Notes under the pieces: generated by a model
Told to the model about the DNA's origin: nothing
Seen by the model: the letters and a program-made list of their open reading frames with translations, nothing else
The model's database searches: none
Assembly (NCBI GenBank): GCA_050293845.1
Contig: JBNKNM010000123.1
Span: forward strand, 1-15,408
Reading direction: 5' to 3'
Origin: Pseudobacteriovorax sp.
Lineage (GTDB): Bacteria > Bdellovibrionota_B > Oligoflexia > Oligoflexales > Oligoflexaceae
DNA length: 15,408 bases
Made by a program: the position numbers and the translations under genes
Shown: positions 1-15,408 of the stretch, piece after piece
Position numbering within the stretch: the first letter of the stretch is position 1
How the letters are laid out: every line of letters begins with the position of its first letter

Positions 1-408
1 TCCCTTAACTTCTATAAAAATTTCAAACAAACCGTCTACAGACTTATCCGTGTGGGTGATAATCACGTCTGGTTGTTGCCAGATGACATCGTTAGAACTA
101 TATCTTAAAGAAGTTGTATCCGAGCCATATCGAATCGCTGTTTGTTTGCAATTGTCACGAAATGATTTGAGAAGATGAGGGTCGATGCTGTTTACATGCA
201 TTCGGGACAGAATTTCGCGATTCCAAGTCTGATCGCATTTTTGGCATTTATATATGAGCCATATATCTAAGACTTTTTGATTGCCATTCACACGAAATTT
301 TTCACTAGAAAAAAATACACTCTTGTTTCTGCAACCACGACAATATCTAGATACAGTGGGTGCTTCTCTCGGTAAGATAGTCCAAATATAGCTTGACGAA
401 ATACGCAT
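1..408 (-). CDS. DUF1062-family protein (putative zinc-ribbon), 3' end runs off the window
   Basis: Manually translated open frame from ATG at 408 to the window edge: MRISSSYIWTILPREAPTVSRYCRGCRNKSVFFSSEKFRVNGNQKVLDIWLIYKCQKCDQTWNREILSR... It has two CxxC pairs and the FRVNxNxKxLDIWLIYKCxxCDxTWN pattern I recognise as DUF1062. Strong SD GGAGG (+ strand 414-418). Confidence 0.85.
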   Translation of the reverse strand, partial: MRISSSYIWTILPREAPTVSRYCRGCRNKSVFFSSEKFRVNGNQKVLDIWLIYKCQKCDQTWNREILSRMHVNSIDPHLLKSFRDNCKQTAIRYGSDTTSLRYSSNDVIWQQPDVIITHTDKSVDGLFEIFIEVKG

Positions 409-484
409 AGATACCTCCCCAGGAAATGTGAAGGTGACTTTGGATGGCGCTTGGATTCGTTAAATATTATGGACGGACTTCAAT

Positions 485-541
485 TTAAGAAGGAGTCACG
501 ACTTTTAAATCTGAGAATCTACTGCCAATCCTCAGATTCAC
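485..541 (-). CDS. Candidate 18-aa leader peptide (MNLRIGSRFSDLKVVTPS) upstream of the DUF1062 gene
   Basis: GTG at 541, TAA at 485-487, SD-like GGAAGG (551-556) 9 nt upstream. It lies in a region of mutually exclusive pairings that involve the DUF1062 SD. Confidence 0.35.
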   Translation of the reverse strand: MNLRIGSRFSDLKVVTPS

Positions 542-907
542 CTGCGCACACCTTCCAGAATTATTCAATTAGGTTCCCTACACTAGGAAACCGACCTAAT
601 GGATGCGATGATTAAACTGAGAGATTGGCTAGTAACTTGGCAAAATATACCTCTTTTAAGAAACTCAGTTTTAGGGCTTAGGTTGTCCGCAACAACCAAT
701 GACTGGATATATTCAGCAAATACTATTCCAGGTGTTGATGATGGGATATATTTGGTTGATAATTTTAGTATTTTTTAAGATATGGATCAGAGCCACAGAA
801 TTCTATGACCAAATACTGGCCAAAATCGGCTCAAATTAAGCCAAAAATCACCAGCTAGTTTGAATATTAAATCCAGGGCTTTATGGTGTTTTGCCGGTAA
901 GTTTGAG

Positions 908-938
908 AAAAAAGGGGGTATCGATCTTCGATCCCCCT
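908..938 (-). terminator. Rho-independent terminator
   Basis: Minus strand reads AGGGGGATCGA-AGA-TCGAT(A)CCCCCTTTTTT: a GC-rich stem with one bulge followed by a U6 tract. Confidence 0.75.
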
Positions 939-1168
939 CTCCAAAAAAGGGGCACACTCGATAAGAGTTTTGTGCAAAAGTCATTTGACATACCACTAGT
1001 AGCACCCTTGGGCAGCCACTATAGAAAGATCAAGTCACACTGATTTTAAGAAAAAAAAGGCTATTTAGATACATTACTAGCGGGTAAAATTTAGAATTTG
1101 GGCAGTATTTTCGTAATAAAACTACAGTTTAGTAATGATGCAAGATTAGTATGCCATTTTAAATGGAC

Positions 1169-1395
1169 GTCCCGTAGATGATAACATCATTTGAAGCCCC
1201 TACTACCTAAAGGAAGCTGATTTTTATCGAAGAGCGTAACTTCTCAAAGCTCTAACCGTCGTACCTGGGTGTTGATCCTTCCGGAACGTTCCCAGCAAAC
1301 AGAAGCTTTGAGAACATGCAGCCAGACCAATTGTTAACTAAAGTTAACTCGCTCCCAAAACTAACCAATGTCATTCAAACCACTAAGATCAGGAG
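1169..1395 (-). ncRNA. Candidate structured ncRNA with 6S-RNA-like central bubble
   Basis: Nested pairings on the minus strand: UCCUG/CGGGA (1390-1394/1170-1174), UUUGAA/UUCAAA (1374-1379/1190-1195), a 17x16-nt bubble, GGGAGC/GCUUCC (1351-1356/1212-1217), perfect 11-bp UUCUCAAAGCU/AGCUUUGAGAA (1304-1314/1241-1251), CUGGG/CCCAG and an apical UCC-GGAA-GGA tetraloop. The structure is directly visible; the family is uncertain. Confidence 0.4.
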
Positions 1396-1851
1396 CTATA
1401 TCTCAAAAAGCGACTCGCTCGCCTTCTTCCATAATTCATCTATCTGCTTTAAAGCGTTGTCACACCCTAGTTGCGCTAAATCGAGCTTGGAGTATACTTG
1501 TCTGGAAATTTCTAAAAGTTCTCGAACAGAGGCCTGCTCTAACAAACGCAATAGGTAGTGAAATCCCTTTTGGTCCTCCAAACTTAAACAGTCTATCACT
1601 TGGTCTAAGGAAATAGCTAAGAGCCGCTTACTTTCAAAAAGGGTATCATTTTTCTTTAGCAATGTAGCCAGTAAGTCGGATATAGAGTCCATAAGTAAAC
1701 AATCGCTTTGGGTAAGGTGACTGTAACGGTAGGTTTTCGAAAAAGCCTGATCCATGAAGATCGGCTGCATAAAAAGATGATTAAAACTAAGAGCACTTCC
1801 GCCCATAGCTCCATATTTCACAAGCTTCCGCCTGTCCAGCTTAACATCCAT
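1396..1851 (-). CDS. Hypothetical protein with twin-arginine (Tat)-like signal peptide
   Basis: 151-aa ORF. N-terminus DRRKLVK resembles S/T-R-R-x-F-L-K, followed by a Gly/Ala-rich segment and a possible AFS cleavage site. The remainder looks helical and no family was recognised. Confidence 0.7.
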   Translation of the reverse strand: MDVKLDRRKLVKYGAMGGSALSFNHLFMQPIFMDQAFSKTYRYSHLTQSDCLLMDSISDLLATLLKKNDTLFESKRLLAISLDQVIDCLSLEDQKGFHYLLRLLEQASVRELLEISRQVYSKLDLAQLGCDNALKQIDELWKKASESLFEI

Positions 1852-1966
1852 TTTTCACCAACTTGAAATATTGACCCAGTTAATCTAAATAACTGCTAAG
1901 AAATTTGCAATAGTATAGGTGATTTGCTATAAATCGGAGCCAAAATCGAAAACTAGTAGAGATAAA

Positions 1967-2734
1967 ATGAGCAATACCATCCGCCAATTGAAAAAACTTT
2001 TCGTCGCTAATGAGAATATTTCCATCGTTTTTTTTGTTGGTAAGGGCAAAACCCACCGCAAGGTCTTCAATTTTAGACGTATTGTTGGATTATTAGGAAG
2101 CTTAACCTTTATCCTTTTAGCTGGCTCTATTGGACTTATTAGTAGCAGTTTTTTAAAAGTAAAATCAAGCCGTTTATCCACCGAGTTACAAGAACGCAAA
2201 TCGCAGCTCCTTAGCTATCAGGCGCAGTACGAAAACCTTTTCGAAATAGCTTATGGTTTAGTTGAGCGCCCTGATGAGATAGAAGAAAATGTCATTGTTG
2301 ACGATCACGAAACAGAAAATTGGCAGCCCAATATCACCAGTCCTGAAATTTACTTCAAATACCTAAATTTAAAACCAGATGAGAGCGGCAGCATTGTCTC
2401 ATTCTCCATTGTAAATAACACGAATGATTTGCAAGAGGGTATCGTTTGGGCTATCGCCAAAATCAATCAAGATGATGGTTCACCGTACTACCTCAGCGCT
2501 CCAGAGCCCGGTATGGTCTTCAATAAAGACGGCTCCGTTCTTGATTTCAAACTGGGTAAAAAGTTTAAGTTCAAAAAACAGTGGAATACTATACTGAAAC
2601 TCGACCGCCCTCAGAACATATCAGGCAAAATGACATATATAACTATTTATATTGCAGACCTAAATGGCAGCATTAAATTAAGACAGACTTTGCAACCCAT
2701 AGCCATCCCAACAGAACCTTCCGTGAGCCATTAA
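1967..2734 (+). CDS. Hypothetical single-pass membrane protein (TM helix, coiled coil, beta-rich C-terminal domain)
   Basis: Long ORF (track start GTG 1919; in-frame ATG 1967 preferred). Basic N-terminus, hydrophobic helix IVGLLGSLTFILLAGSIGLI, heptad-like segment LSTELQERKSQLLSYQAQYENL, then a beta-strand-rich domain. Confidence 0.8.
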   Translation: MSNTIRQLKKLFVANENISIVFFVGKGKTHRKVFNFRRIVGLLGSLTFILLAGSIGLISSSFLKVKSSRLSTELQERKSQLLSYQAQYENLFEIAYGLVERPDEIEENVIVDDHETENWQPNITSPEIYFKYLNLKPDESGSIVSFSIVNNTNDLQEGIVWAIAKINQDDGSPYYLSAPEPGMVFNKDGSVLDFKLGKKFKFKKQWNTILKLDRPQNISGKMTYITIYIADLNGSIKLRQTLQPIAIPTEPSVSH

Positions 2735-2837
2735 ACAAAAAACAGCTTTGTAAATATCAGATTTTGTTCATTTTATATTTTCTCAGGTGGTAAATTGTGT
2801 TCTAATTCAAACGCTTTCTTAAATAGGATTGGTAAGC

Positions 2838-3611
2838 ATGTCGAAAATGCCTCTCATAAAGTTTTTACAGTGTAAAATCAACAACTATGTCGAGGGTAAA
2901 AAGTACCAAAGCCTCATGACTCTCTCGGACAGATCGGGCGTTCCCTATAATACAGTCCGCAGAATCGCAAATGGTCAAGTTGACAAACCGACCTTGGAAA
3001 CGGTCTTGGCTATTTTAAGGGTAGTGGAAAGCCGGAAGGGTGTCGTTGATTCGGTGAAAGAGTATTATCCTGAATTGGGAGAATTCTTTTCATCTTCTCA
3101 GGAAGCCAGTCAAACTCAAATGGTAACCGACCACCTTGTTGATTCGATGGTTGATGATCAAGTAACTTACAGGATTTTCTCAGTAGCTGGAACTCATCAG
3201 GGCACAAATAGACAGGATATTCAGCGTCAGTTTGGTGAAAACGGCGTGGATAAGCTTAAGATGATGCTCGATGACGGCTTTTTATATGAAGACGAAAGTG
3301 GCACTGTACGAACAGTAGTTCGTGAATACTATTCCATGGACATCCGTACCATTCTCAAAAAGATTCGCCATGGTGTCGATATTTTTGATGTTTCCCTTGC
3401 AGGCACCGATGGATGTTTTCTAGCAACCCATACTGAATCTCTAAGCCTTGCTGGAATAAAAGCCATTAAGAAAGCCGCGAAAGATTTTTACTTTACTGTG
3501 GCAGAGATTAAAAATAACGAGAAATATGCTGGCAATATCGCCTTTTACGCCAATGTTATGTTAGGTCTTTTTGACTCAACGAAGCTTGAGGAATCTCATG
3601 AAACGAAATAA
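2838..3611 (+). CDS. XRE/Cro-type HTH transcriptional regulator with winged-helix and TIGR02147/DUF4423-like C-terminal region
   Basis: SLMTLSDRSGVPYNTVRRIANGQVDKPTLETVLAIL is a typical XRE HTH. The central TNRQDIQRQFGENGVDKLKMMLDDGFLYEDESG looks like a winged helix. The C-terminal strand-helix-strand (HTESLSLAGIKAIKKAAKDFY...FYANVMLG) resembles DUF4423. ATG 2838 with AGGA 9 nt upstream is preferred over TTG 2829. Confidence 0.8.
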   Translation: MSKMPLIKFLQCKINNYVEGKKYQSLMTLSDRSGVPYNTVRRIANGQVDKPTLETVLAILRVVESRKGVVDSVKEYYPELGEFFSSSQEASQTQMVTDHLVDSMVDDQVTYRIFSVAGTHQGTNRQDIQRQFGENGVDKLKMMLDDGFLYEDESGTVRTVVREYYSMDIRTILKKIRHGVDIFDVSLAGTDGCFLATHTESLSLAGIKAIKKAAKDFYFTVAEIKNNEKYAGNIAFYANVMLGLFDSTKLEESHETK

Positions 3612-3774
3612 CCTACTGCTTGTTACAGCTTTGTTTATTGCTTTAGGTCCCACCTCCTTAATGGCTGGAGATGGTTCTGCTATTGCTAAAAGAATAGACG
3701 AGATGGAGTGCCCTATTACAGAGAGGCAGGACAAGGACTTATTACAGATACTGCTCGAGATTCTCAGCGAATAA
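3598..3774 (+). CDS. Small secreted protein/peptide precursor, 58 aa
   Basis: GAGGA SD (3588-3592) and ATG 3598, overlapping the regulator's end by 14 nt. MKRNNLLLVTALFIALGPTSLMA is a classic Sec signal (basic n-region, hydrophobic h-region, Pro turn, LMA cleavage). Predicted mature part is GDGSAIAKRIDEMECPITERQDKDLLQILLEILSE. Confidence 0.75.
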   Translation: MKRNNLLLVTALFIALGPTSLMAGDGSAIAKRIDEMECPITERQDKDLLQILLEILSE

Positions 3775-3777
3775 ACT

Positions 3778-4665
3778 TTAGAAACATGTTGCATTTAGGC
3801 AGTTCTGAACAATCTCACAAGAGCTCACCACTCCATCGTTTACTTCACTGTTACTATCTATTACTTCTGATTGCACACAACCAAACTGTAAAGCTTGGCA
3901 AGCCAGCGAATCCCCGCAATCAGGTTGGTCTGAGCATCCCTTATCACCATTGCTCACAAACTGCTGGAGACGCTCTTCTACTGTGTTCAATGATGATGAA
4001 CTAGTATCAATAAAAGAGCATTCTGAAGTGGCTCGTAATATGAGGTCTAAATCCTCCTGGATCGTTGCTAAACTGCTTAAGTTGCTTTCAAGCTGCTCAA
4101 TGCCAGGACACTCGGCAGCCGTACTCCCACTACCAACGACATTATTTTGAATAGAGGACAAACTGCTCTGAACGGCAGAAATTCTGGAGTCCCCATCCTC
4201 AGCCACAGTAAATGAAAGCAAACCTCCCAGAAAACAGTTAAGGTTTTTCAGTTCACTTTGAGATGTATCGGGAGCCCCCAATAGGGTGTTGATGCTAAAA
4301 CGTAGGGCTTCAGCTCGCTCTACTTTTTTCTCTACACCAAAAATTGAGCTGGAAACAGAATCAAATAAACTATCAAAGCCGATATCTCCACCACCAGAAC
4401 CTGTATCAAGAACATCTAGGATGATCTGCCAAATATCAAACCCCGCAGTTCCTAGAGAACTTGCCACTTGCAGGATTCGCTTTTGATTGCTATCGCCTTC
4501 AACCTTTGCTAGGGTCACTTCTGCGCCTCGGTAGTCTTGCTCATCGATTTGATTCGCCGCTTTTTCCAGCAGAGATGCATCTGACTCTTCAGATACTAGA
4601 CCTTCATAAAGATTCCCACTACAAGACACTAGCACTCCCCAAAGGATAAAAGATAAAAACTTCAA
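3778..4665 (-). CDS. Cys-rich lipoprotein, unknown function
   Basis: TTG start with GGAGG SD. Lipobox LVS-C15, then a TPR-like helical pair (LLEKAANQIDEQDYRGAEVTLAKV). Acidic and Ser-rich, with 10 further Cys, 7 of them in the C-terminal ~52 aa. Confidence 0.85.
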   Translation of the reverse strand: MKFLSFILWGVLVSCSGNLYEGLVSEESDASLLEKAANQIDEQDYRGAEVTLAKVEGDSNQKRILQVASSLGTAGFDIWQIILDVLDTGSGGGDIGFDSLFDSVSSSIFGVEKKVERAEALRFSINTLLGAPDTSQSELKNLNCFLGGLLSFTVAEDGDSRISAVQSSLSSIQNNVVGSGSTAAECPGIEQLESNLSSLATIQEDLDLILRATSECSFIDTSSSSLNTVEERLQQFVSNGDKGCSDQPDCGDSLACQALQFGCVQSEVIDSNSEVNDGVVSSCEIVQNCLNATCF

Positions 4666-4675
4666 TGTTTCCTCC

Positions 4676-5788
4676 CTAAAAGCTCATGCTAGTTCGTAAA
4701 CTTAGCGCTACCCTTTGGTCACCTCTTTCTCCAGGATTGAGATCGAGTTCTTCACCATATTTGGCAAACTCTAGCCTAAAGATCCAAAGATCGGCAAACA
4801 AACCGTAACTAAGATAACCATCGTGAACTCCACTAGTAACACCAAAATCCAAATCCCTTGTGAAAACTCTTGTTCCTAGTTCTGCTCCCAGGTGTAATAG
4901 GCGGCTCCAGTGCATCCCTCGTGAATTTTCAATATGCTGAAGATCTAGAAGAAGGTTCAATTCCCACCTTTGAAACGGGAGACGATGCAACATACCCATA
5001 CTTGAAGTCTGTTGTAGTATCTCAGGATTGTCACCACTAGTAAGGTAACCCATACCTCCTATATTCTGCACCAAAGCTCCAAATCGCCAATTTAAAGTAG
5101 GACTCCAAATGGCTGATAGATCTAGGCCAATACCTGTTCCCTTATCGGTCTTTGCTATCTCTTCCACACTAGAATTTTCAATGTCCAAGATATCGGTAAA
5201 AGTTAAACTACCTATAGTCGTAGTTCTAAAAGCTGGTCGCACCGCTGCCCCTACCTTAAAAGTTCCCCCAAAATCATGGCCATAGGCAATATTCAATCCT
5301 GCCATTGTATCGAGTGAAAAATCGAACTTCGGTAAGTTAGGTCTGCGAATCTCTATAAAGGAGCTATTCATGACAAATGGCATAACTTCTAGGTTTAAAA
5401 TTTTTACGGATAAAATCTCACTTTCAATATGAGCAAAGTGCCGATCGCCAAATTTATCACCAAACTTTCGGATAAATCCTATAACGGCATCAGAACCTTC
5501 ACTTGAAAAATCCTGGTCTAAAATATCTTGTATAGTGTTGATCAAATTTTGCCCAGCTACCACAGACAGTTCGAGGGGCCTCAGCTGAAAACTGCTCTTA
5601 CTTTCTGCCAAAACTGCTGGATTAAAGCGGGAACTATGGTTTCCCCAAAACTGAGCGACGTAAGTTTGCCCCCTACCTCGGGTCCGCGCTGTTGAAAACA
5701 AATCGCTAGCAAGGACATCAGCAAAACTGAATGCAATCATGACAGCTACAAAACCGATGGATGTAAAACTGAAGTTAACCATAAACAT
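4676..5788 (-). CDS. TraF-like/DUF5723-like outer-membrane beta-barrel protein
   Basis: Signal peptide, N-terminal RxxGxGxTYVA...FNPAVLA motif (FadL/TraF/PorV-like superfamily), GTGIGLDLSAIW and FGALVQNIG strands, LHLGAELG, alternating amphipathic strands and a C-terminal Phe. Confidence 0.8.
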   Translation of the reverse strand: MFMVNFSFTSIGFVAVMIAFSFADVLASDLFSTARTRGRGQTYVAQFWGNHSSRFNPAVLAESKSSFQLRPLELSVVAGQNLINTIQDILDQDFSSEGSDAVIGFIRKFGDKFGDRHFAHIESEILSVKILNLEVMPFVMNSSFIEIRRPNLPKFDFSLDTMAGLNIAYGHDFGGTFKVGAAVRPAFRTTTIGSLTFTDILDIENSSVEEIAKTDKGTGIGLDLSAIWSPTLNWRFGALVQNIGGMGYLTSGDNPEILQQTSSMGMLHRLPFQRWELNLLLDLQHIENSRGMHWSRLLHLGAELGTRVFTRDLDFGVTSGVHDGYLSYGLFADLWIFRLEFAKYGEELDLNPGERGDQRVALSLRTSMSF

Positions 5789-6024
5789 CTCAGCCAGCTA
5801 AGTTTCTAGAATGTAAACAATTTGGATGTATTCAATATACCAGGAATCCATCCCATTAGGAAACAAGCTGGCCACATTGAGGGGCACAATCTATAAAACA
5901 AGGGTAAAACATGTCAATAAAGCATATTCAAAATGGTTAGTTAACCGCTTTGAAGCTTGGTTTCTATCATCAGCACACAGTTGAATATCTGCTATCCAGC
6001 GGAGCTTATCCATTAAAGATTATG

Positions 6025-6152
6025 TTCACAATGAAGAGGTTTTTAAACTTGCCTATGGAATGGATTCACCATGAATAAAAATAGATATATTAATTTCATA
6101 ATGCTACAAGTCTATAATATAATTGTCGATCACCATGAATGAGCACTATGAA
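6025..6152. promoter_or_regulatory. Four copies of CACnATGAA (best copies are TTCA-N3-TGAA dyads): candidate operator array
   Basis: CACAATGAA 6027, CACCATGAA 6067, CACCATGAA 6131, CACTATGAA 6144. ATTCA-cca-TGAAT (6064-6076) is a perfect dyad. A TTGACA lies at 6175-6180. Confidence 0.45.
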
Positions 6153-6238
6153 CTAATTAATGCCCCCCCCTGTATTGACACATCACAGAAAGATTAGTAA
6201 GAGACAAAAAAACTCTTGATACAACAGAGGGGAAAGTA

Positions 6239-6478
6239 ATGCTTGCACTAAACCACAAAATTGAAAAATTCACCAAAGAGCATGGTCTATCAAGCCGTCA
6301 AAAGGATGTCCTTGAGGAGCTAGTTAAAGGTAACGTAACCAGTATTGAAATCGGCAAGGCACTAGGTATCTCAGCAAATACAGCTAGAATCCACATCAAA
6401 AGCATTAACAGCAGAGTGGGAGTTCACTCAAAAGCCGCCGTGCTCTCACAGCTCATCAGGTTTTCTACATCTGAATAA
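6239..6478 (+). CDS. Stand-alone LuxR/GerE-type HTH regulator
   Basis: 79 aa. GLSSRQKDVLEELVKG..SIEIGKALGISANTARIHIKSINSRVGVHSKA matches the LuxR C-terminal HTH consensus. No receiver or ligand-binding domain. SD GAGGGG. Confidence 0.9.
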   Translation: MLALNHKIEKFTKEHGLSSRQKDVLEELVKGNVTSIEIGKALGISANTARIHIKSINSRVGVHSKAAVLSQLIRFSTSE

Positions 6479-6542
6479 AGATGTAAAGATGGCAAGCGTT
6501 GTGGTCAAGATAATACAACGCATAGCCGCTATCGATAGTTTA

Positions 6543-6899
6543 TTAAACTTGATCCGGACGTTTCAGGCCACCAAATTTTTTTAGAATAAACCTTTGTTCA
6601 TTCATGATTTTTTGGTACGGAATACCTTCGGTAAACTTTAAAACAATTGAACTTTTATCAGATCTGATAATGGTTCCAATTACATTTTTTTCTTCGCTAT
6701 CATAAAAAACAATTTTTCCTAGAATGGGCTTCTTCTCATCCATTTTGGGAGAACTCTTAACTAGAGAAAACTTAACCCCTCCTTCACAGAGATTGATAAC
6801 CTCGAACACCTGATCACCAATTTCAATTTTTGGTCGCACTTCCTTCGGATACTCGATACGAAAATGGTTGCGTGCTGGGCCTTCTTCTTTCTTCCCCAT
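6543..6899 (-). CDS. Stand-alone PilZ-domain protein (putative c-di-GMP receptor)
   Basis: RNHFR (RxxxR) near the N-terminus and NLCEGG (variant of D/NxSxxG), beta-barrel pattern ending G.IIR....IVLKF. SD GGAAGG. Confidence 0.85.
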   Translation of the reverse strand: MGKKEEGPARNHFRIEYPKEVRPKIEIGDQVFEVINLCEGGVKFSLVKSSPKMDEKKPILGKIVFYDSEEKNVIGTIIRSDKSSIVLKFTEGIPYQKIMNEQRFILKKFGGLKRPDQV

Positions 6900-6990
6900 T
6901 AGCTACCTTCCTAAGTATACTCACATTTAATACAGGTATTATTAGCTTACTACAATCGTAGCGCAATTAACATCCTGATACATAGCTTTT

Positions 6991-7015
6991 CAATGGTGAT
7001 TATTAATCACTATTG
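6991..7015. promoter_or_regulatory. 25-bp near-perfect dyad, candidate transcription-factor operator
   Basis: CAATGGTGATTA-T-TAATCACTATTG, a 12-1-12 inverted repeat with one mismatch, ~90 bp upstream of the PilZ gene. No U-tract follows it on either strand. Confidence 0.5.
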
Positions 7016-7100
7016 TAGGATTATTGCGTTCGCGAGCAGCCCCAGCAGACCATGATTCTTAGCTGCATCATCCCCCATGGCTGTGACGTATCAATGCAAG

Positions 7101-8819
7101 TTAGGACCGGAACAGCTCACCCATCTTCTTCCCGAGAATCAATGATGCTCCCAGGATACAAATAGTCAAGATCAACATCCCTACAACACCCAAGGCACTG
7201 GCGACTAGGGAACCGCTACCTTGCTCCAGGAATAGAACATAGATAGCTTTCGTCATAGGATAGAAGCTTTCCTTCATAGCTAGAATCAGACTATCCGATA
7301 CATCTAGCATGGCATAAGAAAAACAAAGCAAGCTACCTGCAATTAGATTAGCCATCACAAGGGGGACAGTTATTTTTCTCAGAGTATGGAAGCGGGAAGC
7401 TCCAAATGTTTCCGAAGCCTCTTCTAATGAATGGCTGGTTTGCTGCAGACCTGCCACTGCTGATCGTACCATATAAGGAAGTCTCCTGATAGCATAGGCA
7501 ATGACCAACAAGGGAACAGGATTATGCAGGGGATCGAGAAATGTATCCGTATAAGTGACTACATAGCCAAAGGCTAATACAATGCCTGGGAGGGCTAATG
7601 GCACCATGACCAAGCTATCGAGCAAGCCGGGAAATGGAACCAACTTGCGCACCACAACATAGGCTATTAGCAGACCTAGTACCAGGTCGACAATGGTAGA
7701 AAGACCAGCAAAAAAGAAACTATTTTTAATCCCAATAAATGGCAGCTCAGCTTGGAAGATTTGCTCATAGTACTTGGTGGTGTATCCATCAGGAAGCACC
7801 GTCATGAACCATTTATCGGAAATACTTGTTACCATAACAGATAAATGAGGTATCAGTGCTAATACAACTGTTCCTAGCACAACACTATAAATGACCACCA
7901 TGCCTAATGGTGTCGCTTTTGATTTCCCACTGGTGACATGGCCTTTGGCCATCATTTCATACTTTTGGTTGCCAAGAGCAAATTTAGAGATCAAAAAGAA
8001 AACAACAGTCAACACGATGACCACACACACTAGGGAATACCCTACTGGGTTTTCATTCACATCAGTAATCATATTGAAAATCTGCACCGGGATCGTTTCG
8101 TGAAAACCCACTAGAAGTGGCGTACCCAAGTCGGTCAAAGCCCAGATAAATACAATGATAGCACCAGCGAAATAACCGGGACGCGAAAGAGGCCAAATGA
8201 TATCCAAATACTGACGCCAACGAGGGACTCCAAGAGTCGTAGCCATTTCCTCGACGCTTGGGTCTATATTGGCCAATGCAGCTGATAGATTTAAATACAT
8301 AATAGGGTAAAGGTGAAGTACTTCTAATACGATCACAGCCCAAAACATATTTTCAGGCCCTAACCAATCGACAGGTTGATCTATCAAACCCCAGTCCATA
8401 AGAGCCAGGTTCACCGAACCTCGACGTGCGAAAAACCTTTGAATACCAATAGCTCCAACGAATGGAGGCATGACCATGGGAACAAGAAGCAAGCCAGATA
8501 AAAGAGCTTTTCCTGGAAATTCAAACTTTGCATTGATCACTGCCAACGGCAGGCTCACCAATGTAGCAACGACGGTAGTTCCCACTCCAATCAATAAACT
8601 GTTCACCATGGAGTTTTTAAACAGCTCGTTCTGAAATAGAAGAGGAAAGTATTCCAGAGTAAACTGCCCATTATTCAAAAAGGCCTTGCTGACAATAATG
8701 GACACTGGCCAGATCAGGAAAAAAAACAACATTGCCAAGGTACAGGCAACAGTGCCATATCCTACAGCCTCGGAAAGGATTCTTGCAAATTTGGAGGATT
8801 CTTCTTTTGGTGTAGCCAT
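7101..8819 (-). CDS. ABC transporter permease, FbpB/AfuB (Fe3+-type) family, two fused TM modules
   Basis: 572 aa, about 12 hydrophobic helices, two EAA loops (VEEMATTLG, LEEASETFGAS), DLGTP motif. Confidence 0.93.
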   Translation of the reverse strand: MATPKEESSKFARILSEAVGYGTVACTLAMLFFFLIWPVSIIVSKAFLNNGQFTLEYFPLLFQNELFKNSMVNSLLIGVGTTVVATLVSLPLAVINAKFEFPGKALLSGLLLVPMVMPPFVGAIGIQRFFARRGSVNLALMDWGLIDQPVDWLGPENMFWAVIVLEVLHLYPIMYLNLSAALANIDPSVEEMATTLGVPRWRQYLDIIWPLSRPGYFAGAIIVFIWALTDLGTPLLVGFHETIPVQIFNMITDVNENPVGYSLVCVVIVLTVVFFLISKFALGNQKYEMMAKGHVTSGKSKATPLGMVVIYSVVLGTVVLALIPHLSVMVTSISDKWFMTVLPDGYTTKYYEQIFQAELPFIGIKNSFFFAGLSTIVDLVLGLLIAYVVVRKLVPFPGLLDSLVMVPLALPGIVLAFGYVVTYTDTFLDPLHNPVPLLVIAYAIRRLPYMVRSAVAGLQQTSHSLEEASETFGASRFHTLRKITVPLVMANLIAGSLLCFSYAMLDVSDSLILAMKESFYPMTKAIYVLFLEQGSGSLVASALGVVGMLILTICILGASLILGKKMGELFRS

Positions 8820-8820
8820 A

Positions 8821-9915
8821 TTAAGTTCCTGGCCCCATTTCTACCTGTGGAGGCAACACAAGCACATCCGCCTTAGGTAAGAAGCATGTGATTTTATCTC
8901 CTTCGCGAAAAGAGTGCTCAGGTGCATGGTAAAAATTCACACGCAATGCAATATCGTGGGGTCCACGCAATAAAAACTGTTCGGATTCTCCTAAATAGGT
9001 CAAATGCTCCACCTCCAACCCTACAGGATTCTCACCGGTTTGTTGTCCCGACCAGTTGATAGCTACAGCCTCTGGGCGGATCGACAAGCAAACTTGATCA
9101 CCTATCGCAAAGCTACCTTCCACCCTTGAAGATTGAATCTCTCCAAAGGGGGTGTTCACTACCGCTAATCCGCCTTCTAATTTACTCACTTGCCCATTAA
9201 TCAGGTTGGTCTCGCCAATGAAGCCGGCAATAAAAGGAGTCGAGGGATGGTTGTATAGCTGACGTGGGGGAGCTGTTTGAATCAGATTGCCAGCATGCAT
9301 TACGGAGATATCTGTTCCCATCGATAGAGACTCTTTTTGATCGTGGGTAACATAAACAGTGGTGATTCCCGTCTGTTTGTGGATTTTCAGGATATTATCG
9401 CGCATCTCCATACGAAGTTTGGCATCAAGGTTAGACAATGGTTCGTCTAGTAATAAGACATTAGGCCTAATAGCAAGAGCGCGGGCTAGGGCCACCCGCT
9501 GCTGTTGCCCCCCAGAAAGTTGTCCTGGGAGACGGTGGCTGAAATTTGCCAACTGAGTAAAATTGAGAACTTCACTAATCCTTTGCTTCAACGCTTGTTC
9601 CGAAAGCTTACGAAGCTTTAAGCCATATTCAATATTTTTATAAACAGTCATGTGGGGCCATAGAGCATAGTTTTGGAAAACCATCCCAATACCACGATCT
9701 GCAGCTGGTAACTTCGTGACATCTTTCCCGTCAAAAAATAATTTTCCTGAGGAGACAGATTCCAAACCCGCTAACATGCGAAGAGTGGTGGTTTTACCGC
9801 ACCCAGAAGGTCCAAGAAGGAAGTGAAGAGCTCCACTTTTAATCTTAAGATTTAGGTTTTCTACAGCAGTAAAATCACCATACCGCTTAGAAACATCTTT
9901 GAATACTACTTCCAT
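8821..9915 (-). CDS. ABC transporter ATP-binding protein, FbpC/PotA family
   Basis: Walker A GPSGCGKT, Q-loop VFQNYALWPH, signature LSGGQQQR, Walker B LLLDEP, H-loop VTHD, C-terminal TOBE-like domain. Confidence 0.95.
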   Translation of the reverse strand: MEVVFKDVSKRYGDFTAVENLNLKIKSGALHFLLGPSGCGKTTTLRMLAGLESVSSGKLFFDGKDVTKLPAADRGIGMVFQNYALWPHMTVYKNIEYGLKLRKLSEQALKQRISEVLNFTQLANFSHRLPGQLSGGQQQRVALARALAIRPNVLLLDEPLSNLDAKLRMEMRDNILKIHKQTGITTVYVTHDQKESLSMGTDISVMHAGNLIQTAPPRQLYNHPSTPFIAGFIGETNLINGQVSKLEGGLAVVNTPFGEIQSSRVEGSFAIGDQVCLSIRPEAVAINWSGQQTGENPVGLEVEHLTYLGESEQFLLRGPHDIALRVNFYHAPEHSFREGDKITCFLPKADVLVLPPQVEMGPGT

Positions 9916-9941
9916 GAAAGGAATTGCTCCGCGTAAATGGA

Positions 9942-11240
9942 CTATTTTAAACTTTTATATCTATTTTTTGCGTAGGATACCCATTTATTAATGGTTTTAT
10001 TGCGAAAGACATCGTCACCCCATTTTTTTTCAAGCTCGAAAAACTCCTTCTCACTCACAGGCGGGGTGCCAAATGCGGTCAGTTTTTCCGGGGTCAAACC
10101 CGACTTTACTAGACGCTTCCATGCACGCTTCAGATCATGATGGACATCAATAAGGACAGCACCGATAAGATCATTGAAAACTCGTTGCATCCTTGTGGCT
10201 TGCTTTAAATCTAACTGTAGGAAGGTTTTTTGCACGAATGGATTAAAGTTTCCAATGCGCCTTCCCTCTGTTTCACTATAGGTCTGTCGATTGACACTCA
10301 TTCTACCCAAGGAAGCAATTTTGGGCCCACCCTTCGTCCCTTTGGGTAAGACCAAAAGCTTCTGCGCTTCACTGCCCAATACGAAATCTATAAAGCGCTT
10401 TGCAGGAACTTTATGAGGGGCACCTTTTAGTAAGGCTATGGGGTCAGGGTCGATCACTGTCTGCCCTTCAGGCATCATGAACCCTAAATTTTCGTCCCCA
10501 ATGTCGCCGATCTTAGCCTGGGCATAGAAATCTATGGCCATAGCTAAAGCAACATCCCCTGACACAACAGCTTTAATAGGATCGGAGCTGGAATGGGTAA
10601 AAGACCTAGTGTTTCCAGCTATAGCTGCCAACAGCTCCCAGCCTTTTTGCCATCCTAAACTTTGCAGAATGATGTTATTCATGGTGTTGGAAGAGCCAGA
10701 ACGACGAGGATCAGCGATGCTAATATTTCCGATATACTGAGGGTTAGCCAAATCGTTCCAGGTCTTTGGAGCGGGAATACCGTCAAATTTTAAGATGCGC
10801 TTATTGTAGAACACGCCAAACGAAGACATGGCCGAGCCGTACCAGGTTTTAGTTTGATCGAATAAAGGAACTCCAGCTACGGTTTGTGGAATATTAGCAG
10901 CTACTTTCTGGGGTAGTTCATGAGAATCAAAAAACCCTAACCGCTGTAATTCAATAAAGGTCGCTGATCCTCCTCCCCAGAAAATATCGACTCCAGCAGA
11001 AGCCGGATTTTTACTATACTTAGCTTTTAGAAACCGTACATCATCAGAAGTTCCCCCCTGGTCTAGCCAATCCACTTGGATCTCTGTCTTATAGGTATTC
11101 TTGTAATGGACTTTAAACGCCGGAATAAACTCTTGCTGAATGGACTTTCTGTGGGGAGACAAAATGACTAGTTTATCGGCTGCCAAAGCATAACATGTAC
11201 TTAGAGCAGTAAGAATACCTAAGATCCATTTGGTTATCAT
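9942..11240 (-). CDS. ABC transporter substrate-binding protein, Fe3+/thiamine/AfuA-like family
   Basis: Start re-called to ATG 11240 (MITKWILGILTALSTCYALA signal peptide; SD GAGGAAGGA) rather than the track's 11369. Motifs GVDIFWGG, PKTWNDL, ADPRRSGS, DPIALLKGAPH..AKRFIDFVL. Confidence 0.9.
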   Translation of the reverse strand: MITKWILGILTALSTCYALAADKLVILSPHRKSIQQEFIPAFKVHYKNTYKTEIQVDWLDQGGTSDDVRFLKAKYSKNPASAGVDIFWGGGSATFIELQRLGFFDSHELPQKVAANIPQTVAGVPLFDQTKTWYGSAMSSFGVFYNKRILKFDGIPAPKTWNDLANPQYIGNISIADPRRSGSSNTMNNIILQSLGWQKGWELLAAIAGNTRSFTHSSSDPIKAVVSGDVALAMAIDFYAQAKIGDIGDENLGFMMPEGQTVIDPDPIALLKGAPHKVPAKRFIDFVLGSEAQKLLVLPKGTKGGPKIASLGRMSVNRQTYSETEGRRIGNFNPFVQKTFLQLDLKQATRMQRVFNDLIGAVLIDVHHDLKRAWKRLVKSGLTPEKLTAFGTPPVSEKEFFELEKKWGDDVFRNKTINKWVSYAKNRYKSLK

Positions 11241-11278
11241 CGAACTTTCCTTCCTCTCGGTTCGGTAAAGGTGCGGCC

Positions 11279-11306
11279 ATTTTACACAGCGTAAGGGAAC
11301 GTGCAA
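11279..11306 (-). promoter_or_regulatory. Candidate sigma70-type promoter of the ABC operon
   Basis: Minus strand TTGCAC-N16-TAAAAT, ending 38 nt upstream of ATG 11240. Confidence 0.5.
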
Positions 11307-11521
11307 GACGTTTTTTTGCTTTCTAGGACCGGGGGGTATGTGTCTAAAATCAAAAGATAAAAATTTCAAGTTTTTATCTTTAATTCACCCAAAAAATAGG
11401 GCATATTTTCGCACATTTATCTTTTAAAAAAATAACTATCAACGATTTCAAGATATTATCAAACTGTATATTTTTTCAATTTCGACATACTTCCTTTCTC
11501 TCTAGTATGTAAATGCCCATC

Positions 11522-12697
11522 TTACGCACCTAATAGGTACTGGCGAATTGCAACAGCTGCATTATGAGCCAGATTACCATCCACTAGATTATCCAGCTGA
11601 TTCAGTTTACTAATAGTACGATTGCGATACTCACCTGGATTTGACAAGCGATAAAGCTCATTAGCCAAGTCGCTAGCGGTAAAGTTTTGGATAAACTCAC
11701 GGATCACTTCCTCGTCAGCAACAAGATTAACTAGACTGATATACTTAATCTTGACCAAGTGCTTCGCCAATTTGTAGCTCAGCGGATTCATACGATAAGC
11801 TACACAAAGAGGCGTTTTAACTAAACCACACTCCAAGGTGGCCGTTCCTGAAGTCACTAGAGCGGCATCAACCGACTTCATTAGATCTAACGAACGTCCC
11901 CTTACCAGGCTTATGGATTTGCCACGCAAGACTCCTCCCTGAGCACTTAGGTCGTCTGGTATCGTCTGAGTTAGTACAGGTTGAAAAATTTGTGGTGGTA
12001 CAGCAGGGCTCATGGAAACTGCAAACTGCAGATCCGTAAATCTAGTTCCCAGTTCTTCTATAATCTCCATGACAAGGGGGAGCATACGACTAATTTCCCC
12101 CTTCCTGCTACCTGGGAAAAAGCCAATACAAGGCCGGTCATCGAGTTGAAAAGCTATACGATCCTGTCTAGCATCCTGGGACCTATCTACCTGTGGGGTT
12201 CCAACATAGCGATAATTGACCTGTCTCTGAATAAAAAAATTCTTTTCAAAGGGCATGATCCCCAAGACCAAATCCGTAAGCCGCCGCAGCTTTTCCGTTC
12301 GCTTTTCTCCCCATGCCCAAAGTTGGGGAGCTACATACTGGATAACCTTTATCTTTCTGGCGCGTAAGAACTCAGCAAGCCGCAGATTAAAGCCAGGATA
12401 GTCCACCAAAATCGCAAATTCTGGCTGACGCCTATCAATTTCAGCGAGCAAATAGTCTTCCAAGCGTTTAAGATGGCTTAAATGTCGGATCACTTCGGCA
12501 AACCCCATGACAGCTAGTTCGCTGATATCAGCAATAACTTCGTAGTTATCGATGGTCGATAACTTAGGGCCACCTATACCGAAAGCTTGATAGCCTGGCA
12601 GCTCTTTTTGCACGTGCACCAACAACTCGCTAGCTAAAAGGTCTCCCGATGGCTCACCCACCGAGATGAAAAAAGAAGAGCCCATAGCAGTACTCAT
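11522..12697 (-). CDS. lpxB: Lipid-A-disaccharide synthase
   Basis: GEPSGDLL, ELAVMGFAEV, VDYPGFN, YVAPQLWAW, PGSRKGEI, TSGTATLE and ISLVNL motifs. Confidence 0.96.
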   Translation of the reverse strand: MSTAMGSSFFISVGEPSGDLLASELLVHVQKELPGYQAFGIGGPKLSTIDNYEVIADISELAVMGFAEVIRHLSHLKRLEDYLLAEIDRRQPEFAILVDYPGFNLRLAEFLRARKIKVIQYVAPQLWAWGEKRTEKLRRLTDLVLGIMPFEKNFFIQRQVNYRYVGTPQVDRSQDARQDRIAFQLDDRPCIGFFPGSRKGEISRMLPLVMEIIEELGTRFTDLQFAVSMSPAVPPQIFQPVLTQTIPDDLSAQGGVLRGKSISLVRGRSLDLMKSVDAALVTSGTATLECGLVKTPLCVAYRMNPLSYKLAKHLVKIKYISLVNLVADEEVIREFIQNFTASDLANELYRLSNPGEYRNRTISKLNQLDNLVDGNLAHNAAVAIRQYLLGA

Positions 12698-13744
12698 TTA
12701 AGATATGGAGCTATCGCGAGTTATAGCAGTTTTAGGTTGCCACCGTTCACCGACAAAACAAATACTCCTGAAATTTTGGTTGGCGTGGTCAATGGCATCA
12801 CCAGCTAGCCTTACAGATTCCACCAGTTGCTCTCCTTGGGCTAGACGATTAGCGGTGCCTAAAAGGTTTTTGCGCCACTCTTCTAGTTGCAGCACTAAAG
12901 GCTCTACTCTGGTCACAGGACAAGTGATTTGCTGACAGAATGGGTGGTCGACAAACTCGAAAGGTTGCTTAAGTTCGCCAATATTAAGCTGTTGGCCGTA
13001 TATAGTACATGATTGAGCAATATAATCGACTTCGCATACACCACTGGTGCCAAAAACCTTTATACTGCGTAACTTTTGAGGGCTTAGCCAATTGGCATGA
13101 ACTGAGCCAGAGATACCTTCTGCGCTACGCACTGAAATTTCAGCTGTATCATATATTCCTTGCAGAGTATTTTGATGAGCTAAGGCATGGGTCACAGTCA
13201 GGGGGCCCAAAAGCCGACGCAAGACATCCAAGTCATGAACAGCAAGATCAAGGATCACGTTGTTGCCTGGCTTAACAGCCCGAGGAAAGCCTCCCCCGCG
13301 CATAGCACTAAAGTGGACAGGGGTTCCTATGACTCCACAATGTAATACAGATTCAAGTTTGTCGATTACGGGATTGCAACGCTCGATATTTCCAACTGCC
13401 AATTTGACCCTGTATTCATGCGCCTTTTCGACAAGGATTCTTGCTTCCTCAAAACTACTGGCCGCAGGTTTTTCAACCAAAGTATGGATTCTTTCATGGA
13501 GCAATTTTTTAACAATTTCAAAATGTGTCTCTGTTGGCGATGCGACAATCGCACAATCAATGGCATTAAATGGCAACATTTCCAGTGAGCTGAGAACAGG
13601 AATATTCGGATCAGGACACAAACTCCTATCGAATGATGGGTCTACAATGAATTTCAGAGCAAAATCTGAACTCTTCTGCAGTACACGCAAATGATTTTTG
13701 CCCATGTTCCCTGTGCCGATAAGGACGACTCTGACTTTGCTCAT
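12698..13744 (-). CDS. Gfo/Idh/MocA oxidoreductase, probable UDP-GlcNAc 3-dehydrogenase (GnnA/WbpB-like)
   Basis: IGTGNMG Rossmann motif, ASPTETH, LVEKP, VGNIERCNP, ILDLAVHDLD. Its stop codon directly abuts the lpxB ATG (TAAATG). Confidence 0.88.
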   Translation of the reverse strand: MSKVRVVLIGTGNMGKNHLRVLQKSSDFALKFIVDPSFDRSLCPDPNIPVLSSLEMLPFNAIDCAIVASPTETHFEIVKKLLHERIHTLVEKPAASSFEEARILVEKAHEYRVKLAVGNIERCNPVIDKLESVLHCGVIGTPVHFSAMRGGGFPRAVKPGNNVILDLAVHDLDVLRRLLGPLTVTHALAHQNTLQGIYDTAEISVRSAEGISGSVHANWLSPQKLRSIKVFGTSGVCEVDYIAQSCTIYGQQLNIGELKQPFEFVDHPFCQQITCPVTRVEPLVLQLEEWRKNLLGTANRLAQGEQLVESVRLAGDAIDHANQNFRSICFVGERWQPKTAITRDSSIS

Positions 13745-13866
13745 ATTGGAGTTCCTTAAAATCTCGTTGCCAAACGACGCAATCTAGCCAATTCTGAAAG
13801 TTTTGGAAAGCCCTGAATTTTCTGAGTTATGACCGGGTATATGAAGCACACGTAGGAGATTATTCC

Positions 13867-15078
13867 ATGGTAACATTAGATCATTCGTCTTACTGGTTAA
13901 CCGAGCCACTGATCACAGGACAAGACTCCCTACCTGATTCTGGAGAAATTGTCATCATAGGATCTGGACTTTCCGGTGTAAGTACCGCTTATTGGTTACA
14001 AAAAATGGGCTTTAATGATCTCACTTTAGTTGATTTTGAACCCGAAAAATCGGCCTCCTTCCGCAACTGTGGACATATTTTACACGGTTCCGTAGAATCT
14101 GCCAAAGCCCTTTGTACCCTCCACGGTTTTACAACGGCAAAGCAGATCTGGGAGTTTTCTGTGGAGCTATGTGAGGAGGTAGCCTCTACAGCGCATACTC
14201 TTCCCGATGATACAGAATATCGAAAGGATGGCTATCTGGTTCTTGCTATCGACGATACTGAGCGCCAGGAAATCATTGAATCCATTGAAATTATTGAAAA
14301 ATTTGGGTTTAAAAATCAGTTTATCAAAGCGCAAACGCTTTGTGAAATGGGCTTCTCAAACGTTCTTGGAGCTCGGTTCGAGGCTGACTCAGCTCAAGCT
14401 CATCCCGTAAAATTTAGAAATGCTCTCCTGAAAAAAGCCTGCTCGCAAGGCCTACGATATTGCCAACCTACTGAAATATTAGGTGTTAACGATATTGGAG
14501 GAAGAATTCACGTGGAGACCGCTCAACGGGTTATACCATGGGATGCCGCTGTATTAGCGACTAATGCTTATTCCCCCTTACTCAGTCCCTACTTTGCCAG
14601 CCATCGATTAGTAGAGCCCTTTCGCGGGCAAATTATCTGTTCACACCCATTAAAATCAAAATTACCTGTCACTTATCCCCATAGTTTTGATCACGGATAT
14701 GAGTATGCTATTGCCACTTCTGACAACCGTCTCATGCTAGGAGGCTGGAGAAATCATACTAAAGAGGGTGAGCTAGGGACTTATGAACTGAGCCCTAATC
14801 CTGTTGTCGAAGAAGGATTAAAGAATTTTGCTAAATTTCATTACAAAGTTGACGAAGACATAAACTGGAAATACTCATGGTCCGGAATCATGGCCAGCTC
14901 GAAGACCGGTTTTCCTTTCATCGGACCGACAAACAGCCCACTCATTTATACTGTGAGTGGCTTTACAGGGCACGGATTTTCCTGGGCCCACGGCTCAGCA
15001 AAGCTTTTGGCCAAGATAATGAGTGGACGAGAAATTCCAGCTGTTGCAAAATTTTTTGATCCACGCCCATTAAAATAG
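13867..15078 (+). CDS. FAD-dependent oxidoreductase (DAO/PuuB-like family)
   Basis: IIGSGLSGVSTAYWL dinucleotide-binding motif, ASFRNCG, VLATNAYS, PFRGQI, WSGIM...FPFIG, GFTGHGFS. SD AGGAG. Confidence 0.92.
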   Translation: MVTLDHSSYWLTEPLITGQDSLPDSGEIVIIGSGLSGVSTAYWLQKMGFNDLTLVDFEPEKSASFRNCGHILHGSVESAKALCTLHGFTTAKQIWEFSVELCEEVASTAHTLPDDTEYRKDGYLVLAIDDTERQEIIESIEIIEKFGFKNQFIKAQTLCEMGFSNVLGARFEADSAQAHPVKFRNALLKKACSQGLRYCQPTEILGVNDIGGRIHVETAQRVIPWDAAVLATNAYSPLLSPYFASHRLVEPFRGQIICSHPLKSKLPVTYPHSFDHGYEYAIATSDNRLMLGGWRNHTKEGELGTYELSPNPVVEEGLKNFAKFHYKVDEDINWKYSWSGIMASSKTGFPFIGPTNSPLIYTVSGFTGHGFSWAHGSAKLLAKIMSGREIPAVAKFFDPRPLK

Positions 15079-15141
15079 CTTGCATACATCTTGAATGATG
15101 TGAAAAAACATATACATTAACTCAGCAAAGGAGATAGTTCG

Positions 15142-15408
15142 TTGGCAAAGAAAAAAGTAAAAACAGCAAAAAAGGCAGCAACTAAAAAAAAGGTGGCTAA
15201 GAAAAAGGCAGCAAAAAAAGTTGCTGCTAAAAAGAAAACTGCCAAGAAAAAGCTTGTGAAGAAGTCTACAGCCAAAAAAAAGCTTGCTAAAAAGAAGGTA
15301 GCCAAAAAGAAAGCAACTGCTAAGAAAAAAGTCGCTAAAAAGAAGGTAGCCAAAAAGAAAGCGACCGCTAAGAAAAAAGTTGCTAAAAAGAAGGTAAACA
15401 AAAAGAAA
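15142..15408 (+). CDS. Histone H1-like Lys/Ala-rich repeat protein, 3' end runs off the window
   Basis: AAGGAG SD (15128-15133), TTG start, 89 open codons: MAKKKVKTAKKAATKKKVAKKKAAKKVAAKKKTAKKKLVKKSTAKKKLAKKKVAKKKATAKKKVAKKKVAKKKATAKKKVAKKKVNKKK. Third positions vary synonymously. Confidence 0.88.
   Translation, partial: MAKKKVKTAKKAATKKKVAKKKAAKKVAAKKKTAKKKLVKKSTAKKKLAKKKVAKKKATAKKKVAKKKVAKKKATAKKKVAKKKVNKKK
15286..15408 (+). repeat. 48-bp intragenic tandem repeat (AKKKVAKKKATAKKKV), ~2.6 copies visible
   Basis: Units start at 15286, 15334 and 15382. The first two differ only at three synonymous positions. Confidence 0.85.

Follow-up and report, generated by a model that had tools for sequence, protein, structure and literature searches.

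A regulator gene overlapping a 58-amino-acid exported-protein gene in Pseudobacteriovorax sp.: probably one copy of a multiplied two-gene envelope-protein cassette

When a gene for a putative transcriptional regulator runs into a very short gene for a secreted product, the question arises whether the two form a peptide-signalling pair or a unit of another kind. Such an arrangement is found in a stretch of DNA of 15,408 nucleotides (nt) from Pseudobacteriovorax sp. (NCBI GenBank assembly GCA_050293845.1, contig JBNKNM010000123.1, positions 1 to 15,408), hereafter the window. On its forward strand, an open reading frame (ORF) of 257 amino acids (aa) is listed at 2838..3611 (ATG 2838, TAA 3609-3611), with the sequence AGGA at 2825-2828, 9 nt upstream of the start codon; it encodes a helix-turn-helix (HTH) regulator, and is overlapped by 14 nt by an ORF of 58 aa listed at 3598..3774 (ATG 3598, TAA 3772-3774). 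A preliminary description of this DNA, made from the letters alone, placed the Shine-Dalgarno sequence and the ATG of the small ORF within the final codons of the regulator gene, which is indeed where they lie, the Shine-Dalgarno motif GAGGA being located at 3588..3592, 5 nt upstream of the ATG. The same description suggested that the two genes encode a receptor and its propeptide. Our analysis favours a different answer: the pair is probably one copy, with the shortest partner seen, of a cassette of two genes that Oligoflexus-like Bdellovibrionota possess in many copies and that would work as a self-controlled envelope-protein unit.

The product of the small ORF is predicted to be exported. 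Signal peptides were called throughout by a crude rule of charge and hydrophobicity, by which residues 1-23 (3598..3666) form a Sec-type signal peptide composed of a basic n-region (MKRNN), an h-region with a 13-residue hydrophobic core (LLLVTALFIALGP) and the segment TSLMA, followed by G24, so that the predicted cleavage site is LMA/G. The preliminary description had proposed a Sec signal and a remainder of about 35 aa, and we arrive at the same product: a predicted mature protein of 35 aa (3667..3771) that begins with GDGSAIAK, ends with an amphipathic LLQILLEIL segment and carries a strongly acidic net charge. The residues G-D-G-S-A-I at its predicted N-terminus (3667..3684) are hereafter called the tag. 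Scans against our library of hidden Markov models (HMMs) gave no family match for the product. The exact 58-aa protein sits on four contigs in the protein collection, and a word-index search of that collection returned the protein itself only and no relative.

The window comes from the metagenome-assembled genome of an uncultured organism (6.68 Mb in 741 contigs, 41% G+C), which contains 17 matches to the regulator at E<=0.01. Directly 3' of 13 of them lies an exported partner, i.e. a signal-peptide ORF of 58-137 aa in 12 cases and a lipoprotein of 195 aa in one; the other four have no visible partner, one of these being 325 nt from a contig end. An iterated HMM of the family returned 21, 25, 31 and 41 matches over three rounds; since it did not converge and the lower ranks may represent drift, only the best 37 of the 41 matches were used. 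An exported protein or lipoprotein is encoded directly downstream of 27 of these 37 family ORFs, and 20 of the 27 partner genes overlap the end of the regulator gene, typically as ATGA. In related genomes, an ORF of 59-222 aa adjoins the regulator gene at 19/19 best-hit loci (one locus per genome) and has a signal peptide in 18 of them, the remaining one (L020) being without it at its listed start. Beyond these two genes, none is found repeatedly in the 4 kb around the cassettes. Against the background of the same genome, 132 of the 3522 ORFs of at least 200 aa precede, at a distance of -45 to +100 nt, a signal-peptide-like ORF 45-150 aa in length, and 32 of the 3522 precede one that also bears the Gly motif described below, half of which (16/32) lie behind this regulator family. 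The regulator and its exported partner, as these sequence comparisons show, duplicate and diverge as a whole unit.

The partners range overall from 58 to 562 aa and are often folded domains; the element common to them is a Gly/Asn-rich motif that follows the signal peptide. While the window has the shortest partner, those of the other small-partner cassettes of the same genome measure 89-137 aa, those in relatives 110-222 aa, and the longest of all is a propeller protein of 562 aa. The tag takes the form G-[NDEQ]-x-G-G-G in the branch of the family to which the window's regulator belongs, and G-x-G-S-x-T-V in its nearest clade, as exemplified by GDGSAIAK in the window, GSGSDTVFK in C1 and GNGSTVHK in C208; one Gly of the tag is invariant in all 14 aligned nearest-clade partners. 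A regular expression for the clade motif, which was composed after viewing the data and serves for description only, occurs in 25 of 28160 background small ORFs, and by eye fits 12 of the 22 clade partners. A typical nearest-clade partner of 126 aa was modelled by AlphaFold2 as an alpha/beta domain (predicted local distance difference test score, pLDDT, 84), in which the tag would form the first strand (E28-33); among solved structures this model has no recognisable relative (best Z 3.7; Foldseek E>=0.2). None of ten small partners matches any family model. Among 20 larger partners, DUF4360 is found in three, DUF4382 in one above and one below the cut-off, and a Kelch propeller in one; two others show sub-cut-off matches at chance level only, and the remaining 12 belong to no family in the models searched.

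Some other loci of the genome touch on the cassette. On contig C4, a 247-aa ORF on the reverse strand (46867-47610 in reverse-strand coordinates) has a signal-peptide ORF of 125 aa containing SGGGS behind it at -11 nt; the latter gives a weak match to the partner profile (E 0.0017), the former is missed by the regulator HMM, and the pair may be a still more divergent cassette. The partner ORF at about 17858-18229 of contig C25 (L004), in which DQSSVLL is repeated in tandem, is broken by an assembly gap (a run of N), so that its length of 123 aa is unreliable. The cassettes on C25 and C35 lie near shared gene sets, with ORFs of 90-95 aa and 209-221 aa that are similar between both loci and may be phage or mobile-element genes.

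As to the regulator itself, an AlphaFold2 model built on a 133-sequence alignment (pLDDT 93.6; predicted template modelling score 0.83), together with fold searches, upholds the XRE-type HTH and the winged helix named in the preliminary description. Residues 1-80 (2838..3077) form a predicted XRE/Cro-type HTH domain, which matches HTH_3 at E 1e-3, below the cut-off, and resembles SinR (3qq6; TMt 0.72 in Foldseek) as well as ClgR (Z 8.8), C.AhdI (Z 8.1) and HipB (Z 7.7) in VIA. Residues 97-168 (3126..3341) form a predicted winged helix with a helix at 125-145 and strands at 149-151 and 157-159 as assigned by DSSP; its VIA matches over residues 97-180 are TubR (Z 7.9), ArsR (Z 7.1) and MecI (Z 6.8). 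The rest, residues 169-257 (3342..3608), is a helical and extended region. In VIA, residues 95-245 are best matched by 4g6q_B, a protein to which no function is assigned (Z 9.3, root mean square deviation 6.4 over 144 aligned residues). The whole regulator has no Foldseek match at E<=1e-3, and searches of PDB sequences gave matches at the level of the HTH only, with no solved relative beyond it. The families matched at E<=1 are HTH_3, HTH_26 and HTH_31, with no tetratricopeptide repeat (TPR) family among them; as the two-stranded winged helix at 97-168 and the roughly 90 residues after it are confidently modelled, no TPR array fits into the protein. The preliminary description had likewise seen no TPR.

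Its further label for the regulator, 'DUF4423-like', is right as remote homology and does not extend to a match with the curated models. The window's regulator matches neither PF14394 (DUF4423) nor TIGR02147 at E<=1, and of 18 aligned relatives none matches TIGR02147, two match PF14394 at E about 0.08, and 16 have no match (curated cut-offs, 50 bits for TIGR02147.1 and 30 bits for PF14394). Bona fide members, 280-300 aa long, are encoded in the same genome, where 12 of 19 further ORFs score between 1e-18 and 3e-41 on PF14394, and two that were scored on TIGR02147 reach 213 and 129 bits. When the profile of the window's branch (18 sequences) was aligned by hhalign with that of 12 TIGR02147/DUF4423 members from the same genome, they matched with a probability of 95.5% (E 1.6e-8, 228 columns), and the columns of the C-terminal region match the DUF4423 part of the TIGR02147 members; the iterated HMM, though unconverged, likewise merges the two groups. 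The regulator can therefore be placed, on the strength of its sequence, in a divergent sister branch of TIGR02147/DUF4423 that the curated Pfam and NCBIfam models miss, its winged helix and C-terminal region being the apparent counterpart of the DUF4423 region. The profile of this branch gathers 1444 clusters (50% identity) when the threshold is E<=1e-3, and 952 when it is E<=1e-10; those with a known phylum are mostly from Bdellovibrionota.

The two branches resemble each other in more than alignment. TIGR02147 ('Fsuc_second') and DUF4423 proteins are about 250-300 aa long with an N-terminal XRE-type HTH and an alignable C-terminal region, occur in many copies per genome, and have their genes overlapped by a downstream one that encodes an exported, tagged protein. 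In the window's genome, bona fide TIGR02147 genes precede lipoproteins of 188-358 aa with G-T-x-V-G-N-P after the lipobox Cys, or secreted proteins of larger size that contain VGNGG. At PF14394 loci across the class, the downstream ORF has a hydrophobic N-terminus in 28 of 29 cases; judged by eye, 19 of the 29 bear NGG[DEGS] or [VIT]GN[PGA], five bear variants and five nothing of the kind. The difference lies in the partners, which are mostly small signal-peptide proteins of 58-157 aa other than lipoproteins in the window's branch, and lipoproteins or GNGGD proteins of 190-560 aa behind the bona fide genes. The sister branch thus keeps the same gene logic, i.e. a regulator overlapped by an exported tagged protein, with small soluble partners replacing lipoproteins. 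TIGR02147/DUF4423 is a catalogued family with no assigned function; in full-text searches, supplements aside, it was met only as a row of the proteome table of PMC12546842, where Bd3700 appears as a 'DUF4423 domain-containing' protein. What is new here is the sister branch, invisible to Pfam, and its small, soluble, non-lipoprotein exported partners, in this case reduced to 35 aa. Across these surveys of paralogues and homologues (27/37, 19/19 and 28/29), an exported ORF with a conserved mature N-terminus very often lies 3' of the regulator, in keeping with the association that the preliminary description had noticed at this locus.

Is the small ORF then a real gene? The answer comes from an orthologous locus, a single one, in G005 (L009), a metagenome-assembled genome named Oligoflexus sp., in which the regulator is 75% identical to that of the window and the neighbouring genes are the same (further regulator orthologues, P0003-P0007, show 48-73% identity). 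Metagenome contigs searched with the regulator yielded a single weak and irrelevant locus. The small ORF of G005 encodes 59 aa and starts 47 nt past the regulator stop codon, so the overlap is not conserved (-14 nt in the window vs +47 nt in G005). The two small proteins are 40% identical; the signal peptide of the G005 protein ends in AYS and is followed by GDGSAIG, which places the same Gly at position +1 in both and leaves the tag identical. The six codons of GDGSAI differ by five third-position changes between the two genomes, all five of them synonymous and none non-synonymous, which indicates that selection acts on the small protein. As the orthologue is equally short and under purifying selection, the short form is old and probably functional, and these codon comparisons support the small ORF as a real, conserved gene. 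The preliminary description had raised the possibility of a truncated remnant of a longer secreted protein; this holds to the extent that the paralogous partners are longer, but not for the true orthologue.

On the reading that we favour, the regulator would bind an operator upstream of its own gene, presumably in the intergenic region 2735..2837, and thereby control a bicistronic mRNA. Ribosomes that finish the regulator would re-initiate at ATG 3598, which would keep the output of the exported product in constant proportion to that of the regulator; the pre-protein would be exported through Sec and cut after A23. The resulting 35-aa product would have its role in the envelope, where it would represent the partner class in minimal form, and would not return to the cell as a signal. 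The tag, shared by all partners, would serve recognition or structure, and in a typical partner it would be the first beta strand. The intergenic region contains one imperfect inverted repeat (2743-2789, 70% complementary) and a TCTAATT block that it has in common with the region upstream of the G005 orthologue. A terminator scan of the forward strand found nothing.

Several observations weigh against this reading. Among the 37 family ORFs, nine stand without a visible partner (ten if the borderline C79 is counted), though for two of these a contig end is no more than about 325 nt away, and one is a fragment of 165 aa; moreover, with an HMM that did not converge, lower-ranking family members may be drift. 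A profile of 16 other partners from the same genome misses the 58-aa ORF at E<=10, and since the word-index search found no relative either, its place in the partner class is argued from its position, its signal peptide and its tag. The tag is enriched, not exclusive, behind these regulators, which precede 12 of 31 tag-bearing signal-peptide ORFs as called by the crude rule. Autoregulation and co-transcription are suggested by the gene layout. A sigma-70 consensus scan of the forward strand of 2735-2837 found no site, no 7-mer is shared by, or clearly enriched in, the 37 family upstream regions (the best was observed 7 times vs 1.1 expected), and inverted repeats with a best arm of at least 8 nt occur in 4 of 36 family upstream regions as compared with 4.4% of 573 controls, which is no clear excess.

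How do other explanations compare with this? In the receptor-propeptide reading of the preliminary description, the 58-aa pre-peptide would be exported, processed, re-imported (e.g. by an Opp-type permease) and bound by the C-terminal region of the regulator, altering transcription. The likeness to the RRNPP pairs of Firmicutes (Rap-Phr, PlcR-PapR, NprR-NprX, AimR-AimP) lies in an HTH protein of at least 250 aa that adjoins or overlaps a small ORF with a Sec signal. As given in PMC10075063, the RRNPP signature consists of a propeptide of 10-100 aa with a Sec signal, an adjacency of -50 to +191 bp, and a receptor of 250-500 aa with TPRs; the pair agrees with this signature in four of five points (58 aa, a Sec-type signal by the crude rule, 257 aa and -14 nt). 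The short form is, in addition, kept in the G005 orthologue, and binding proteins of the Opp/Dpp type are present in the genome, with 15 matches to PF00496, 14 of them above the cut-off. The fifth point, however, is missing, as the regulator is without TPR, and ComR and Rgg2 match its fold in Foldseek with a TM score of only about 0.2 (probability 0.2-0.3). RRNPP systems have a host range of Firmicutes and the mobile elements of these, whereas the host here is a bdellovibrionotal cell with Oligoflexus sp. as its closest relatives; it is diderm, as the preliminary description had said, given that the window encodes LpxB, and Sec export therefore ends in the periplasm. The sister cassettes usually encode partners of 90-560 aa (folded proteins, lipoproteins, DUF4360, DUF4382 and Kelch proteins, up to the 562-aa propeller protein), and the piece conserved among paralogues is a common N-terminal tag and not a variable specificity peptide. 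Given such partners and their shared tag, peptide signalling is unlikely here, and an envelope-protein cassette more likely; a complex prediction for the regulator with mature residues 24-58 (score 0.02) weighs neither way. We also regard as improbable, and to a like degree, a feedback coupled to export, in which the C-terminal region of the regulator would bind the unexported pre-protein (signal peptide and tag) in the cytoplasm, so that transcription tracks export flux, much as in secretion-chaperone/regulator couples. Coupled genes would fix the ratio of regulator to partner, as the overlap of 20 of the 27 partners allows, and the signal peptide with the tag is the sole feature common to otherwise unrelated partners, as would be expected of a shared binding site; yet the tag varies by clade (G-x-G-S-x-T-V, G-[NDEQ]-x-G-G-G, GNGGD, C-G-T-x-V-G-N-P), and the one partner that was modelled shows it as an ordinary beta strand, the first of the fold. 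The broader idea that the conserved tag lets a regulator of the TIGR02147 superfamily sense its own exported partner, either after re-import of a processed fragment or by binding the unexported precursor, is in our view unlikely. If true, it would make the 35-aa product a partner reduced to its signalling core, and the cassette a diderm feedback circuit, working through a peptide or through secretion, that has no TPR, falls outside RRNPP and is present in dozens per genome.

The small size of the ORF admits yet another reading, that it is a functionless, shrunken remnant of a longer exported partner and that the regulator alone matters. Its 58 aa set against the 89-137 aa of other small partners in the genome and the 110-222 aa of those in relatives, and its failure to match the profile of other partners, would fit such decay, but the Shine-Dalgarno sequence and the ATG are intact, and the orthologue behind the 75%-identical regulator keeps the 59-aa frame, the signal peptide, the cleavage position and the hexapeptide with its five synonymous changes; we give this reading little credence. 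Far less probable still is a toxin-antitoxin-like or bacteriocin-like pair, in which an XRE-type regulator would serve as antitoxin or for immunity and the small peptide would be toxic. It is true that the HTH fold is like that of the HipB and HigA antitoxins (Z 7.2-7.7; HigA E 3e-3) and that the two genes overlap; more broadly, residues 1-80 share the fold of XRE antitoxins and controllers (HipB, HigA, C.AhdI, SinR; Z 7.7-8.8), which also come in overlapping two-gene operons. The regulator of the window, however, is three times longer, with 257 aa and two further domains (the winged helix and the C-terminal region), and its partner is exported by a Sec signal instead of being a cytoplasmic toxin or enzyme, matches no toxin family and has a strongly acidic mature part, while sister partners are large lipoproteins and propeller proteins. 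The acidic charge of the mature peptide and the lack of a double-glycine leader led us to reject the bacteriocin version.

The envelope-cassette reading has a looser parallel in the regulators that lie inside variable surface-structure operons, i.e. the fimbrial regulators of the PapB/MrpJ type and UpxY/UpxZ of Bacteroides capsule loci. There, too, many paralogous loci for variable envelope structures each have their own small regulator gene, which by analogy suggests that control of the present cassettes might be specific to each locus or act across loci. The analogy ends at the level of sequence and fold, where no relation exists, and of gene order, the regulator of the window coming first and being coupled to a single exported protein. 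Since the cassette occurs roughly 30 times in a genome of 6.7 Mb, it is probably a main way in which these bacteria organise how their envelope proteins or secreted proteins are expressed. Being the smallest natural version and the easiest to synthesise, the 35-aa partner offers a practical entry point to the function of the tag and of the regulator.

With regard to the neighbouring genes, an ORF of 271 aa with one N-terminal membrane span and no family match lies on the forward strand at 1919-2734, 103 nt upstream of the regulator gene; a 302-aa counterpart occupies the same place in G005 (L009 2419-3327, reverse strand), so it may belong to this locus, and it does not recur at paralogous cassettes. 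On the other side, a convergent 295-aa lipoprotein-like ORF (3778-4665, reverse strand) ends 3 nt past the small ORF, and is followed by a 370-aa ORF (4676-5788, reverse strand) with weak PorV/DUF5723-like matches (E 0.003-0.1, well short of the cut-offs); synteny with G005 extends to both. Farther away, a DUF1062 ORF is found at 1-408, and the region 6543-15078 encodes a PilZ protein, an ABC transporter (permease, ATPase and SBP_bac_6 binding protein), LpxB, a GFO/IDH/MocA oxidoreductase and a DAO-family oxidoreductase. Between these, a 79-aa ORF on the forward strand at 6239-6478 consists of a GerE/LuxR-type HTH only (E 3e-11), and similar small ORFs occur within 4 kb of the cassettes on contigs C16 and C72.

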